Assembly (NCBI GenBank): GCA_050261575.1
Contig: JBLNDL010000086.1
Location: forward strand, 1 to 47,882
Length of the DNA: 47,882 nucleotides
Direction: 5' to 3'
DNA from: Sphingomonadaceae bacterium
GTDB lineage: Bacteria > Chloroflexota > UBA6077
Positions 4,969 through 9,320 of the stretch are shown here, piece after piece. A program made the position numbers and the translations under genes. The notes under the pieces were generated by a model, which searched no databases, was not told the DNA's origin, and saw only the letters and a program-made list of their open reading frames with translations. Position 1 is the stretch's first letter. Each line of letters starts with the position of its first letter.

Positions 4969-6405
4969 CTACCCCACACCCAAGGTGCCCCGCATCTCCA
5001 TCGGCTGCAGCATGAGCCACACTCCCGCCGCGAACAGAGCGATCTCCAGCAGCGCCCAGGGCAGGAACGCGCGACGAGCCGCCCGCAACTCGCCCTGGCG
5101 GGAGCGGGCCAGCCGATGGCTCACCACCAGCGAGAGGAGCAGCCCCGCCTCCAGGCAGATCAGCTCGATTGGCAGAAGCCAGGAGGCCGGCACCAACGGC
5201 GCCAACCCCCAGGCGGGATCCCCCAGCAGCGGCAGCCCCGCGTCTGCCAGGAAGCTCTGCACCACCGGCACCAGGGTCAGCCCGCCAGTGAGGAAGTGGT
5301 AGCCGTAGTGGGCCAGCCACATGCCGAAGCCCAGGGGGAGCAGACCGTAGCTGTGGTGGGCGGCCACCCGAGCCAGCGGCTCCGTGGAGCCCGCCAGCTT
5401 CCTGCTCGCCCAGGCGGCGAGCCCCACGGTCGCCAGCGGCAGCACGCCGAGGCCCAGGGCGAAGACCACCAGCAAGACGATCCCTTCCGAGCGGGTGCCC
5501 AGCAGCCCCGCCACCCATCCGGCAAACCCATGGAACGGGCCCACCATGCCGAAGGCGTTCATGTAGGATGCGTAGACCAGCACCACCACCAGGGCAGCCA
5601 GGTCGACCCGCTCGTCCAGGTGGCCTAGCCCCGCCCGGTGCCGGCCGTCCCCAAGCTCGGCCCCGGGCCGCCTGAGGATGACGCCGACGTTGTCGTGTGG
5701 GCAAGCGTGGACGCAATCCAGGCAGAAGGTGCAGTCCATGTTGCCTGCCTTCTTCGGCTGGAACAGCCCCAGCTCGCAGCCACCGGGCTGCCTGATGCAG
5801 TCTTTGGTGGCGCACGCGGAGCACAGGTTCGGCCGCAGCACCCGGACCTCCGATGGTGAGACCAGAGAGTTGACGAAGTTGAACTGGCCGATGGGGCAGA
5901 GATACTTGCAGAAGGCCGCCCCCTTGAAGAAGGCGTCCACCACGAAGGCCGCCGCGAAGTAGACGAGGATGATAACGGCGGTCAGCCAGGGGCTGGCCCA
6001 GGGATCGAAGGCCTCGTAGTACCAGAAGAAGAGCAGCAGCAGAGCGACGGCCGGCCACTTCCATCGCAGGGCCCTGGGCCAGGCTCGCTCGGCAGGCAGT
6101 AGCCTCTTGGCCAGCCATCGAGGGAGCATGAAGGGGCAGACCGTGCAGGCGACGCTGCCGACCTGCAGCAGAGCCAACACCGTGAGGCCACGCCACTCCA
6201 CCCACGGCACCACCCCTGCCAGGTTCATGGGAGCCAACTGGGGGCCGAACAGGCCATCGAAGATCAACAGGGCGGCGATGGCCAGCATCGGAAGCTGAAA
6301 GGCCACCCTGGCGTGGCGCCACCTGAGGAAGCTCCCCAGCAGAGGAAGTCTCAGCAGATCGAGGCCGGCCGCCTGCGCGCCCGGGGGCGCCACCGCCGGC
6401 CTCAC
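4969..6405 (-). CDS. Polytopic membrane protein with 4Fe-4S motifs (NapH/NosR/FesM-like)
   Basis: CTVCP and FCKYLCPIG (CxxxCP) motifs, CSACATKDC, CTFCLDCVHACP; many TM helices; GTG start overlaps the upstream TGA. Confidence 0.85.
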   Translation of the reverse strand: MRPAVAPPGAQAAGLDLLRLPLLGSFLRWRHARVAFQLPMLAIAALLIFDGLFGPQLAPMNLAGVVPWVEWRGLTVLALLQVGSVACTVCPFMLPRWLAKRLLPAERAWPRALRWKWPAVALLLLFFWYYEAFDPWASPWLTAVIILVYFAAAFVVDAFFKGAAFCKYLCPIGQFNFVNSLVSPSEVRVLRPNLCSACATKDCIRQPGGCELGLFQPKKAGNMDCTFCLDCVHACPHDNVGVILRRPGAELGDGRHRAGLGHLDERVDLAALVVVLVYASYMNAFGMVGPFHGFAGWVAGLLGTRSEGIVLLVVFALGLGVLPLATVGLAAWASRKLAGSTEPLARVAAHHSYGLLPLGFGMWLAHYGYHFLTGGLTLVPVVQSFLADAGLPLLGDPAWGLAPLVPASWLLPIELICLEAGLLLSLVVSHRLARSRQGELRAARRAFLPWALLEIALFAAGVWLMLQPMEMRGTLGVG

Positions 6406-6839
6406 CTGGCGGCCACCCCTTTCACGTCGAAGCTGCGCTCCAGCTTCTCGCCATCCGGCAGGGTGGCCAGGACCGTGAGGATCCAGTCCCCGCCCATCGT
6501 GAAGCGGAAGCCCTCGGTCTGGTAGCGACCCCCGCCGGTGTGCTTGGCCGCTGCCTGCACCGGCTTCATCCCAGCGTGGTTCATGTCGCCCCGCACCGAC
6601 ACCTCGGCACTCTCGATAGGCCTGCCCTGGGCGTCCCGGAGCAGCACTTCGATGGTGGCGGGTCCGACCGCCTTCTCCCCAACCGACTCCAGCTCCACCT
6701 GGGCGCCACCACCCCCTGCCGCGGCGGTCGTCCGCCCGCAGGCGGTGGCCATCAGCGCGAGCAGCACCATCGACACCAGCAGCAATGTGAGGGCGCCCCC
6801 TCGCTCAACGCGGGGCCATCGGCTCCGTGGAAAGGACAT
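6402..6839 (-). CDS. FixH/YtkA-like lipoprotein
   Basis: Lipobox ATAC; GDMNHAGMKP and FTMGGDW motifs; SD AGGAGGAGG before ATG 6839. Confidence 0.8.
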   Translation of the reverse strand: MSFPRSRWPRVERGGALTLLLVSMVLLALMATACGRTTAAAGGGGAQVELESVGEKAVGPATIEVLLRDAQGRPIESAEVSVRGDMNHAGMKPVQAAAKHTGGGRYQTEGFRFTMGGDWILTVLATLPDGEKLERSFDVKGVAAR

Positions 6840-7130
6840 CCTGCGGTACCTCCTCCTGAGGCTGGGCATCCCCCGCCCCGATCATCAACAACCACTTATG
6901 GGGCAAGAGGAGTGCCACCCGGGAGGTCCGCACGGGTATCTCCGGCTGCGCCGGTCGCCAGCAGTGCTCGATGGAACGGCAGGAGCGGATACAGAGGCCC
7001 GCCCCGGGGCGCAGAGACTGCGTGGCACCGTGCCCGCTCGCGTCACGAGCCCCACCCTACGCCGGAGATGCCCGCTCGGGCGATGGCCCTTCAGGCGCGA
7101 ACTGGGCCCAATCCACTCGGGGATACCCGC

Positions 7131-7655
7131 CTACAGCCCCCGGAGGATCTCCAGCAGCTCCTCGATGTCGGGCTGCTCGTTGCTGTCGTGGACGTCGATG
7201 AATGCGATGCGGCCCTCCTTGTCCACGATGAAGTTGGCCCGCTCGCTGTAGCCGTCGTCCCTGAGTACCCCGTACAGGCTGCACACCATCCCGTGGGGCC
7301 AGAAGTCCGAGGCCAGTGGGTAGCTGATCCCTCCCAGAGAGAGTGCCCAGTTCTTCAAGGCCGGCACGTGGTCGACGCTGATGCCGATGATGTCTGTGTC
7401 CAACTGGTCGAAGCGAGACTTGTCTACCTCCAACGAAGGCACCTCGACCGATCAAACTGGGGTGAAGGCCAGAGGGAAGAAGACGAGCAGCGCGTTCCGC
7501 TTGCCACGCAGGTCGGAGAGGGTGAAGTGGTTCGTGCTGCGGGCGCCGACGGTCCTCCCCAGGTGGGTGGGCAGGGTGAAATCGGGCGCCTCGTCGCCCA
7601 CAGCGAGGGTCACCGTCTCCATGGCTTTCTTCCTGCGGCCGATCGGGACAGACAT
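7131..7655 (-). CDS. AhpE-like peroxiredoxin (AhpC/TSA family) with in-frame UGA at the peroxidatic site; probable selenoprotein, 174 aa
   Basis: ORFs 7452..7715 and 7131..7442 share a frame; joined they read [10 protein letters not shown]...[18 protein letters not shown]...GISVD...LASDFWPHG...[15 protein letters not shown] at 7452-7454; SD AGAGGAGG before ATG 7655. Confidence 0.88.
7422..7448 (-). promoter_or_regulatory. Candidate bacterial SECIS element
   Basis: mRNA after UGA: UCG GUC GAGG UGCCUUC GUU GGAGGUA GAC; 7-bp upper stem with a G-containing loop starts 11 nt after UGA, plus a GUC/GAC lower stem. Confidence 0.7.
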
Positions 7656-7871
7656 GGGGAACCTCCTCTGGTCGATGGCGATGGCAGTTGAAGATCCCAG
7701 CACGTCTCGTACCACGGAGGCGGAGGGTCGCAGGGTCGGCGGACACGGCGACCCCGCCTGCGACGAACCAGCGGCAGGGGACGCCCCCGCCTACCCCCAA
7801 GAACGGGAGGGGGCGGGTCTGGGACCCGCCCCCCGGAGCTGCCGTGCAGGGCCGACCGGCCCTACGGTTCA

Positions 7872-9320
7872 CTAGATCCCGAAGGCCACGTGGAGCCACG
7901 GCAGGGCGAAGTAGACCACGAAGGCCAGGGAGGCGACGTACATCGCCCAGTGGAGGCTCTTGGCCTTGCCCTGCACGATCTTCAGGAAGGTGTAGGTGAT
8001 GAAACCGACGCCGATACCGTTGGTGATGCTGTAGGTGAAGGGCATCACGGCGATGGTCAGCAGCGCCGGCAGCCCCTCCTCCAAATCGCCGAAGGGGATG
8101 TCCTTGGCCACAGCGGCCATCAGGAAGCCCACGACGATCAGGGCAGGAGCCGTCGCGTGCGCCGGAACCACCCCGGCGACAGGGGAGAAGAACATGGCCG
8201 CCAGGAACAGGACACCGGTCACGACGGCGGTGAGCCCGGTCCGCCCGCCCTCGCTGACGCCCGCGGCGCTCTCGATGTAGGTGGTCGCGGAGCTCGTGCT
8301 GGCAGCACCGCCGAAGACCGCCGCCAGGGAGTCCACCAGCAGGATCCTGTTCAGCCGTGGCAGGCTACCCTTCTTGTCCAGCCAGCCGGCCTCACCGCCG
8401 ATGCCGATCACGGTCCCCATGGTGTCGAAGAAGTCCGACAGCATCAGGGAGAAGACAGTCAGGATGGCGGTCAGGAAACCCACCTTGGCGAAGATCTCGA
8501 AGCTGATGCCCTGGCCGACGATGGAGAGGTCTGGAAGGGCCACGATGGAGGATGGAATGACGGCCACACCCGGGGAGGCGAATGCCTTCCAGCCGCTGAG
8601 GCCGTTGATCACGATCGCCAGCACGGTGCTGGCCAGGATGCCGATCAGCAGGGCGCCCTTGACCCTCTTGGCCATCATCCAGATGATCAGGAAGAGGCCC
8701 ACGATCGCCACCAGGACGGGGCCAGAGGTCAGGTCGCCCAGCGCGACCGGGGTCGCCGGGTTCTTCGTGCCATACTTGATTAGCTCGCCGTCGGCGAGGC
8801 CGATGAAGAAGATGAAGAGACCAATGCCCACGCCGATGGCCTTCTTGAGGGTCATCGGTATGGCGTTCATCACCGCTTCGCGGAAGCCGGTCACCACCAG
8901 GAAGGTGATAGCGAGACCTTCCATAAAGATCACGCCCATGGCGGCCTGCCATGGGAGCTTCATCCCGACGATGAGCTGGAAGGCGACGACGGCGTTGAGC
9001 CCCATGCCCGGGGCCAGGGCGAAGGGATAGTTCGCGTAGACCCCCATGAAGATGGTCATGACTCCTGCGACGAGGCAGGTTGCCGCCATGACCGCAGGGA
9101 ACGCGGGACCGAGACCCTGGAGGTCCTGGATACCAGCGAAGGACAGGATCGAGGGATTAACGAAAATGATGTAGGCCATCACCATGAAGGTGGTGAGCCC
9201 CGCGACCAACTCGGTGCCCACGGTGCTGCCGCTGGCGCTGATGCCGAAGAAGCTATCGAGCCAGCCGCGGCTCCCGGCACCCTTGCCGGACATGTCTGCC
9301 GTGATGGATTGGTTTGCCAC
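7872..9320 (-). CDS. NCS2 family (AzgA/PbuG-like) purine permease
   Basis: ELVAGLTTFMVMAYIIFVNP, ANYPFALAPGMGLNA, DFFDTMGT, YIESAAGVSEGGRTGLT, MPFTYSITNGI; SD AGGAAGGGGAGG before GTG. Confidence 0.95.
   Translation of the reverse strand: MANQSITADMSGKGAGSRGWLDSFFGISASGSTVGTELVAGLTTFMVMAYIIFVNPSILSFAGIQDLQGLGPAFPAVMAATCLVAGVMTIFMGVYANYPFALAPGMGLNAVVAFQLIVGMKLPWQAAMGVIFMEGLAITFLVVTGFREAVMNAIPMTLKKAIGVGIGLFIFFIGLADGELIKYGTKNPATPVALGDLTSGPVLVAIVGLFLIIWMMAKRVKGALLIGILASTVLAIVINGLSGWKAFASPGVAVIPSSIVALPDLSIVGQGISFEIFAKVGFLTAILTVFSLMLSDFFDTMGTVIGIGGEAGWLDKKGSLPRLNRILLVDSLAAVFGGAASTSSATTYIESAAGVSEGGRTGLTAVVTGVLFLAAMFFSPVAGVVPAHATAPALIVVGFLMAAVAKDIPFGDLEEGLPALLTIAVMPFTYSITNGIGVGFITYTFLKIVQGKAKSLHWAMYVASLAFVVYFALPWLHVAFGI

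Follow-up and report, generated by a model that had tools for sequence, protein, structure and literature searches.

The window analysed here is a stretch of 47,882 nucleotides (nt) from contig JBLNDL010000086.1 of the soil Chloroflexota genome assembly GCA_050261575.1. On its minus strand it carries a gene for a peroxiredoxin (Prx) in which a UGA codon stands at the place of the peroxidatic cysteine, and we propose that this codon is read as selenocysteine (Sec). The complete coding sequence (7131..7655, minus strand) comprises 174 codons, from an ATG at 7655-7653 to a TAG stop at 7133-7131. A Shine-Dalgarno-like GAGGAGG, found by direct reading of the sequence at 7662..7668 on the same strand, precedes the ATG with a 6-nt spacer, and the start at 7655 is further backed by the N-terminus MS[VI]P[IV]GR.KKA, which is kept in the two nearest relatives. 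The frame contains a single in-frame TGA, codon 68 (7452..7454, minus strand), and no other stop or frameshift. Gene finding with translation table 11 yields two pieces of 87 and 103 residues from this one frame, and the 103-residue C-terminal open reading frame (ORF) begins with a GTG at 7442.

An earlier analysis of the letters without database searches, hereafter the sequence-only reading, had described two intact fragments in one frame that are split solely by the UGA, and had expected that annotation pipelines would split or truncate the gene. The 174-codon minus-strand frame agrees with this description, both halves are conserved among relatives, and the protein sets hold only C-terminal pieces of 100-103 residues. 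The window's own product appears in a large protein collection as a 100-residue C-terminal fragment (P0003), a homologue from an NCBI Chloroflexota metagenome-assembled genome is kept as a 103-residue 'redoxin domain-containing protein' (P0004), and the collection contains more such fragments of 100-103 residues.

The predicted peroxiredoxin

The read-through protein matches Pfam AhpC-TSA (PF00578) over residues 19-152 (9.4e-28; 97.1 bits against a cut-off of 26) and Pfam Redoxin (2.2e-18), and the TGA sits on the catalytic column of the AhpC-TSA match. Among solved structures, the closest by sequence are seven entries of Mycobacterium tuberculosis AhpE (Rv2238c; E 2.7e-26 to 6.4e-25), and the next family, the 2-Cys peroxiredoxins, follows from E 6.4e-16. 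In bit scores, 95.6 to AhpE compare with 61.8 to the best non-AhpE Prx. An AlphaFold model that was built from an eight-sequence alignment has moderate confidence (predicted local distance difference test, pLDDT, 72.5; predicted template modelling score, pTM, 0.77), and AhpE chains take ranks 1-9 in a Foldseek search with this model, with target template modelling (TM) scores of 0.80-0.85 and 35-37% identity. The active-site motif of the window protein is P61-L-A-F-T65-P-V-U68, in which U68 occupies the peroxidatic position of the PxxxTxxU pattern and aligns with the peroxidatic Cys of AhpE in FFPLAFTGIC; the motif SDFWPHG is common to both proteins. The sequence-only reading had called the protein AhpE-like, which the best sequence match and the nine best fold matches bear out, and the FFPLAFTGIC that it had given for AhpE is what the printed alignment shows at the aligned place.

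In an alignment of the window protein with seven relatives (A1), T65, P66, V67, the U/C column, R139 and D117-F118-x-P120-H121-G122 are invariant. The 174-residue protein contains a sole Cys, C125 in PHGMVC, as had been read from the letters, and a role of this Cys as resolving residue had been considered there. We reject this role, because the residue is not conserved: among the seven other A1 sequences, six have Ala or Val in this column, and the aligned AhpE residue is Ser. Since C125 is not conserved, we read the enzyme as 1-Cys type, like AhpE. An assignment as PrxU equivalog was also rejected; the corresponding model NF040737 is the best NCBIfam model for the protein, although its score of 60.2 bits stays far below the cut-off of 270. 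The gene product is thus predicted to be an AhpE-like peroxiredoxin of the 1-Cys type that belongs to the AhpE branch rather than to the PrxU branch.

Decoding of UGA68

The genome to which the window belongs is assembled in 103 contigs and is 100% complete by marker genes. It contains the components for Sec decoding, all of them above curated cut-offs: a tRNA-Sec (73.5 bits against a cut-off of 47), which ARAGORN calls as SeC(tca), selA (595 bits), an adjoining selB (331 bits, plus its C-terminal piece) and selD (353.7 bits), the latter with one in-frame TGA of its own. That the host should carry selA, selB, selC and selD had been anticipated from the UGA codon, and this expectation is borne out. 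In addition, TGA stands in frame at a known Sec position in at least five other genes of this genome, among them selD, two FdhA-type genes, a second peroxiredoxin and a glutaredoxin (Grx) fused to a PDZ domain, which are described further below.

Relatives of the protein point in the same direction. Among 19 matching loci from related genomes, the peroxidatic column holds TGA in 18 and TGC in one; one of the 18 (L034) comes from an unpublished genome (G037), and leaving it aside brings the ratio to 17 of 18. When prokaryotic genomes were scanned, one for each species, 542 loci were confirmed, and the best 80 of them carry TGA (73), TGC (4) or TGT (3) at this position. Judged by record title, these 80 loci belong mostly to Chloroflexota (Anaerolineae, including the cultured Anaerolinea thermolimosa IMO-1), the others to Acidobacteriota, Gemmatimonadota, Myxococcota and, in one case, Armatimonadota. 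Two members of the 80-locus set (L046 and L047) are apparently the same two nearest relatives that occur in the 19-locus set as L024 and L025. The sequence-only reading had held that the UGA replaces the peroxidatic Cys and that homologues which never have UGA would speak against this view; we find TGA or Cys codons at the column, with TGA prevailing in both sets. The codon itself is reproducible, as contigs of run X1 (a possible source), run X4 (another sample) and run X5 (another study) show 7452-7454 without any difference, and the sole difference listed in the contig comparison is at position 7261 in run X6. A look through the sequencing runs for RNA data that contain the stretch gave no match. 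A metagenome scan with the window protein returned no relative closer than 57% identity, and the window's clade stays at three sequences.

Bacterial SECIS (selenocysteine insertion sequence) elements of the fdhF type consist of a stem-loop 3' of the UGA with an apical, GU-initiated loop about 20-25 nt away from it. The window gene shows such an arrangement, with a stem-loop right after the UGA and a small apical loop that exposes GU within this distance. The apical stem-loop, UGCCUUC[GUU]GGAGGUA (7425..7441, minus strand), has 7 bp and is composed of UGCCUUC (7441-7435), GUU (7434-7432) and GGAGGUA (7431-7425). It begins with the 11th nt after the UGA, and its loop lies at +21..+23 from the U of UGA. 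GUC/GAC outer pairs are present below the apical stem, so that the hairpin exists as the sequence-only reading had drawn it. RNAfold favours a longer lower stem, in which GGUCGAGGU (7449-7441) pairs with GCUUCGACC (7414-7406) below the same apical hairpin. This minimum is a two-tier hairpin (7406..7449, minus strand), in which an asymmetric internal loop of 11 nt separates a 9-bp lower stem from the apical hairpin on top. Compared to the textbook fdhF-type SECIS of E. coli, the position just 3' of the UGA, the distance of the GU-initiated loop and the 17-nt upper stem-loop beginning about 11 nt after the codon are alike. However, the loop of the window's hairpin is GUU and not GGUC, and no bulged U is evident. 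The FdhA genes of the same genome keep the fdhF-like GGUC(U) loop.

The hairpin has counterparts among the other Sec genes of the genome and among the relatives. Behind the TGA of selD lies GGGUCC[GUU]GGACCU with its loop at +21..+23, identical in loop and distance to the Prx hairpin, and the two FdhA-type genes have 6-7-bp stems with GGUCU loops at +22..+26; GU-initiated loops are thus found 21-26 nt downstream in all three genes. In the second Prx gene and the Grx-PDZ gene the hairpins are less clear and have competing stems, and the Grx-PDZ loop reads AGUUC at +26..+30. In the 80 loci, the median folding energy of the 54 nt after the codon is -18.8 kcal/mol for the 73 Sec forms and -7.8 kcal/mol for the 7 Cys forms, 5 of which are one clade (Mann-Whitney p 3e-5), whereas the 54 nt before the codon are alike in Sec and Cys forms (-14.6 vs -13.6). 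For the family hairpin in 74 sequences, 76.6% of cells are paired, compared to 31-47% when partners are slid by 1-3 columns, 90 cells are doubly changed compared to 29-52, and the covariation score is 0.250 compared to 0.045-0.119, in a comparison in which the family structure is favoured, as it was derived from the folds of the same 74 sequences. The three sequences of the window's clade have the two-tier fold in common (44 of 45 cells paired), with one compensatory change from G-C to A-U and two G-C/G-U changes; all 18 upper-stem cells are paired there, with one change from G-U to G-C.

Several observations weigh against Sec decoding, or at least reduce the force of the evidence just given. 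The folding of the nucleotides behind the UGA, which the sequence-only reading had named as a check, does produce the hairpin, but its stability is barely above chance. The 66-nt stretch folds with -23.8 kcal/mol (z = -2.19), a stability that 3 of 200 shuffled sequences also reach; when the 17 codons after the UGA are resampled synonymously, a fraction of 0.088 of 2000 resamplings matches the native -18.9 kcal/mol, and within this GC-rich gene the segment ranks 15th in stability among 157 windows of 54 nt. Taken alone, the stability of the window's hairpin is weak evidence. The folding test of Sec against Cys forms overstates independence because most of the Cys forms come from a single clade, and the family structure has the advantage mentioned above. 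RNAalifold on the 74-sequence alignment gave no consensus structure. The window and its two nearest relatives are off the family register, with 9 of 15 pairs forming in a reading of the rows, and the clade's own register rests on three sequences, too few for a statistical test, and 180 of 500 shuffles do as well. An Rfam scan of 7000-7900 at E<=10 returned chance-level matches only and no SECIS family. Finally, the 80 loci were picked by similarity to a Sec-form query, hence the proportion of 73 in 80 does not apply to the family as a whole, and a protein collection lists 3411 homologues at E<=1e-10, of which many are complete proteins and so of the Cys type. One such full-length Cys homologue (P0002), which bears the Joint Genome Institute (JGI) name 'mycoredoxin-dependent peroxiredoxin', is 63% identical to the window protein.

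Four other explanations of the in-frame TGA have to be weighed. A decaying gene, in which a Cys codon (TGC or TGT) has mutated to TGA, would require a single point mutation, and gene callers do treat the gene as broken (P0003, P0004). We consider a pseudogene very unlikely, as the TGA is kept in 73 of the 80 related loci over several phyla with both halves conserved, no further stop or frameshift has accumulated in the frame, and the gene has a SECIS-like hairpin and a host with the complete Sec machinery. Still less probable is that the UGA simply terminates translation, so that a 67-residue N-terminal peptide would be made alone and/or the 103-residue ORF would be a separate protein. The latter has its GTG start (7442) and is what pipelines annotate; however, neither piece forms a complete thioredoxin fold, the C-terminal one lacks the PxxxTxx(C/U) active site, and the Cys-form homologues P0002 and P0009 are single full-length proteins. 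Moreover, the GTG lies inside the hairpin, and the letters before it, read by eye, contain no Shine-Dalgarno-like purine run.

Insertion of a standard residue at the UGA (Cys, Trp or Gly, through a deviant code or near-cognate suppression) would likewise yield the full-length protein, and with Cys this would still be active. Yet an uncurated count of the window's open frames with 300 codons or more finds TGA as the stop codon in 23 of 58, and TGA also ends Prx genes of the relatives, therefore the genetic code is standard. A dedicated tRNA-Sec with selA, selB and selD exists, and the hairpin agrees with those found in other Sec genes of this genome, which leaves the standard-residue explanation with even less probability than termination. 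An error of sequencing or assembly in this metagenome-assembled genome comes to mind given its 103 contigs, but the contigs of three runs agree, including those from another sample and another study, and independent assemblies of relatives show the same codon; we regard the chance of such an error as negligible. Thus, we conclude with high confidence that the window contains a real selenoprotein gene in which UGA68 would be read as Sec. The data directly show the frame with its motif, the hairpin, the Sec machinery, the Sec/Cys pattern of the relatives and the recurrence of the TGA between runs; that Sec is incorporated, that the enzyme acts as a peroxidase and which protein reduces it are what we infer.

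With UGA68 read as Sec, the parts found suggest the following course of events. SelB with Sec-tRNA(Sec) would be held by the hairpin just behind the UGA (apical stem-loop 7441-7425, GUU at +21..+23), and Sec would be inserted in place of termination. By homology to AhpE and other peroxiredoxins, the selenolate of U68 would be positioned by Thr65 and Arg139 in the PxxxTxxU pocket and would attack the peroxide bond, giving a selenenic acid. This acid would then be restored by an external reductant, which should be needed because the protein has no conserved second Cys. The reductant would be of the glutaredoxin/mycoredoxin type, and the probable Grx(UPWC)-PDZ selenoprotein is the candidate from the genome itself.

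Fused relatives and the candidate reductant

The proposal of a Grx-type reductant is made because most relatives carry a Grx-like domain at their C-terminus. In the best 80 loci, such a domain is fused in 62 cases, that is in 56 of 73 Sec forms and in 6 of 7 Cys forms, while 17 Sec forms and 1 Cys form are stand-alone. The fused domain has about 80 residues and a CxxWCPxC motif. It matches Pfam Glutaredoxin in precomputed annotations, and in NCBIfam it reaches 45.6 bits with GlrX_YruB and 41.8 bits with mycoredoxin, both under the cut-offs. The window's own Prx is not fused. In a quick maximum-likelihood (ML) tree with midpoint root, the window protein groups with its two nearest relatives (100% support in the Shimodaira-Hasegawa-like approximate likelihood ratio test, SH-aLRT) on a long branch of 1.11 changes per column, and the link of this clade to the fused Anaerolineae is weak. 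The fused relatives are held by loci of the range L048-L125, for example the Anaerolinea thermolimosa IMO-1 locus (L052) from about 3001. In one locus (L056, from about 3136) the frame after the Sec codon extends over 544 codons and leads from a degenerate Grx-like part into sugar-kinase-like sequence, which could reflect a frameshift, a join made during assembly or a more extended fusion.

A single homologue of the Grx-like domain was detected in the window's genome (G000:C2:12745-12936, minus strand; E 4.8e-6, 34% identity). The protein to which it belongs (locus L155, about 1180-1700) joins a glutaredoxin (Pfam 2.2e-21) to a PDZ domain and has the active site T-U-P-W-C, where the TGA falls on the first Cys position of a CxxC-type site. 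This protein is likely a further selenoprotein, and its role as reductant of the Prx is put forward as a hypothesis. More generally, the domain architecture of the relatives makes a glutaredoxin/mycoredoxin-type protein the most likely reductant. A reservation is that the reductant is deduced solely from domain fusion in other lineages and that the match in the window's own genome is weak.

A different neighbour was observed at stand-alone loci. Outside the window's clade there are 15 stand-alone Sec-Prx loci, and in 13 of them (L050, L074, L087, L093, L100, L102, L106, L109, L111, L116, L117, L120 and L122), the next downstream gene on the same strand is PrdB/GrdB-like and is split by an in-frame TGA (TPA-U-PDC). 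The PrdB-like protein, for which L062:1361-2269 (minus strand) is also listed, reaches 146 bits with the NCBIfam PrdB model, whose cut-off is 300. By their conserved arrangement, Sec-Prx and PrdB-like gene are a predicted selenoprotein gene pair in the stand-alone loci outside the window's clade. With this PrdB-like protein as query, no such gene was found in the window's genome; a search with PF07355 was silent in control genomes too and is hence uninformative.

Taken together, these observations allow a tentative and rather doubtful reading, in which AhpE-type Prx outside Actinobacteria would largely be a selenoenzyme with its own reductant, varying by lineage. As parts of this same tentative reading, the reductant in Anaerolineae might be the fused mycoredoxin-like Grx domain, giving a Sec-Prx-Grx hybrid; in a group of Acidobacteriota and Myxococcota a PrdB-like UxxC selenoprotein might be encoded alongside; and the window's lineage, which has no fusion, might have remodelled its SECIS and might recycle the enzyme with the separate Sec-glutaredoxin-PDZ protein. 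If true, this would amount to a peroxide-reducing relay with selenium in both the peroxidase and the reductant.

Known selenoproteins and genomic surroundings

Among bacterial selenoproteins, peroxiredoxins with Sec are a well-established family. In PMC1794560, Table 1 assigns 12 selenoproteins to Prx, and reviews list 'Peroxiredoxin (Prx), PF00578/COG1225, TxxU' with a conserved PxxxTxxU motif (PMC9312934, PMC13188914). Both reviews cite PrxU of Eubacterium acidaminophilum (Sohling et al. 2001), the founding member. The window gene is a further member and carries every sequence-level feature by which this family is recognized: an AhpC/TSA domain, a predicted Sec at the position of the peroxidatic Cys, homologues with Cys and a SECIS-like element right after the UGA. 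Its occurrence in a Sec-decoding host also fits the family, whose hosts are often anaerobes or soil organisms. The difference from PrxU is that the window protein falls in the AhpE-like branch and is no PrxU equivalog.

The AhpE of M. tuberculosis is reduced via mycothiol and mycoredoxin-1 (PMC8113037). The window protein shares with it FFPLAFT..C/U, SDFWPHG and the absence of a conserved resolving Cys, and the pair of AhpE and mycoredoxin-1 (Mrx1) is mirrored by the fused mycoredoxin/Grx-like domain of the relatives. In contrast to AhpE, the window protein has a predicted Sec in place of Cys, about 18 extra residues at the N-terminus and an 8-residue insert (residues 34-41, of low confidence in the model), and its host belongs to Chloroflexota. 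A peroxidase and its reductant in one chain are also known from the Prdx5-Grx hybrid of Haemophilus influenzae (PDB 1NM3, listed in PMC8113037). The fused relatives share this logic; however, the H. influenzae protein is a Prx5-type Cys enzyme, while the fused relatives are AhpE-like, mostly Sec forms and have a Grx-like CxxWCPxC motif, and the window's protein itself is unfused. Among the papers that our literature search covered, none names an AhpE-type Sec form or a fusion of Sec-Prx and Grx-like domain, and the supplementary lists of large selenoproteome surveys may hold such proteins.

The case illustrates how a selenoprotein is lost by automatic annotation, with public protein sets keeping an inactive-looking C-terminal fragment only; soil Chloroflexota are thereby credited with too small an antioxidant repertoire and too little dependence on selenium. 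The AhpE branch, which is known mainly as a mycobacterial Cys enzyme, appears to have many Sec members, often fused to a mycoredoxin-like domain. These fusions would lend independent support to a Grx-type recycling route, and the natural Sec/Cys pairs are useful for comparing catalysis and resistance to over-oxidation. Hence the value of the finding lies in the correction of an annotation and in drawing attention to a large Sec clade of the AhpE-like type, whose redox partners are built in or encoded nearby. It describes no new mechanism, and current knowledge on selenoproteins is not overturned.

Besides the Grx-PDZ gene, four further genes of the same genome with an in-frame TGA were located. 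The second peroxiredoxin (G000:C30:126-581, minus strand; locus L044:105-578) matches AhpC/TSA in Pfam with 1.2e-32, has the TGA at the peroxidatic column (FTGG-U) and is 31-34% identical to the window protein. In selD (G000:C65:2949-3887) the TGA is at the known Sec position (SCAG-U-AGK), and the two FdhA-type genes (G000:C18:15415-17412 and G000:C6:44180-44941) have one TGA each, within CAR[TV]-U-H.

Around the Prx gene, neighbour clustering of the 80 loci found no partner gene that is kept family-wide, the largest cluster comprising 14 loci, and the gene therefore appears to stand alone. A scan of 6800-7950 for promoters and terminators detected nothing resembling a promoter, and its single terminator-like match, within the gene, is at chance level. 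The upstream neighbour, on the same strand, is a permease gene of the xanthine/uracil type (7872-9320). Between permease and Prx genes a GC-rich perfect inverted repeat is found at 7809-7837, where Rfam matches are at chance level only; it could be the terminator of the permease gene. On the downstream side, after 261 nt, a YtkA-like gene follows (6402-6869, minus strand). Its stop is overlapped by 4 nt by a gene for a Cys-rich membrane protein of 478 residues (4969-6405, minus strand), for which no Pfam match was obtained, and these two genes probably form an operon.

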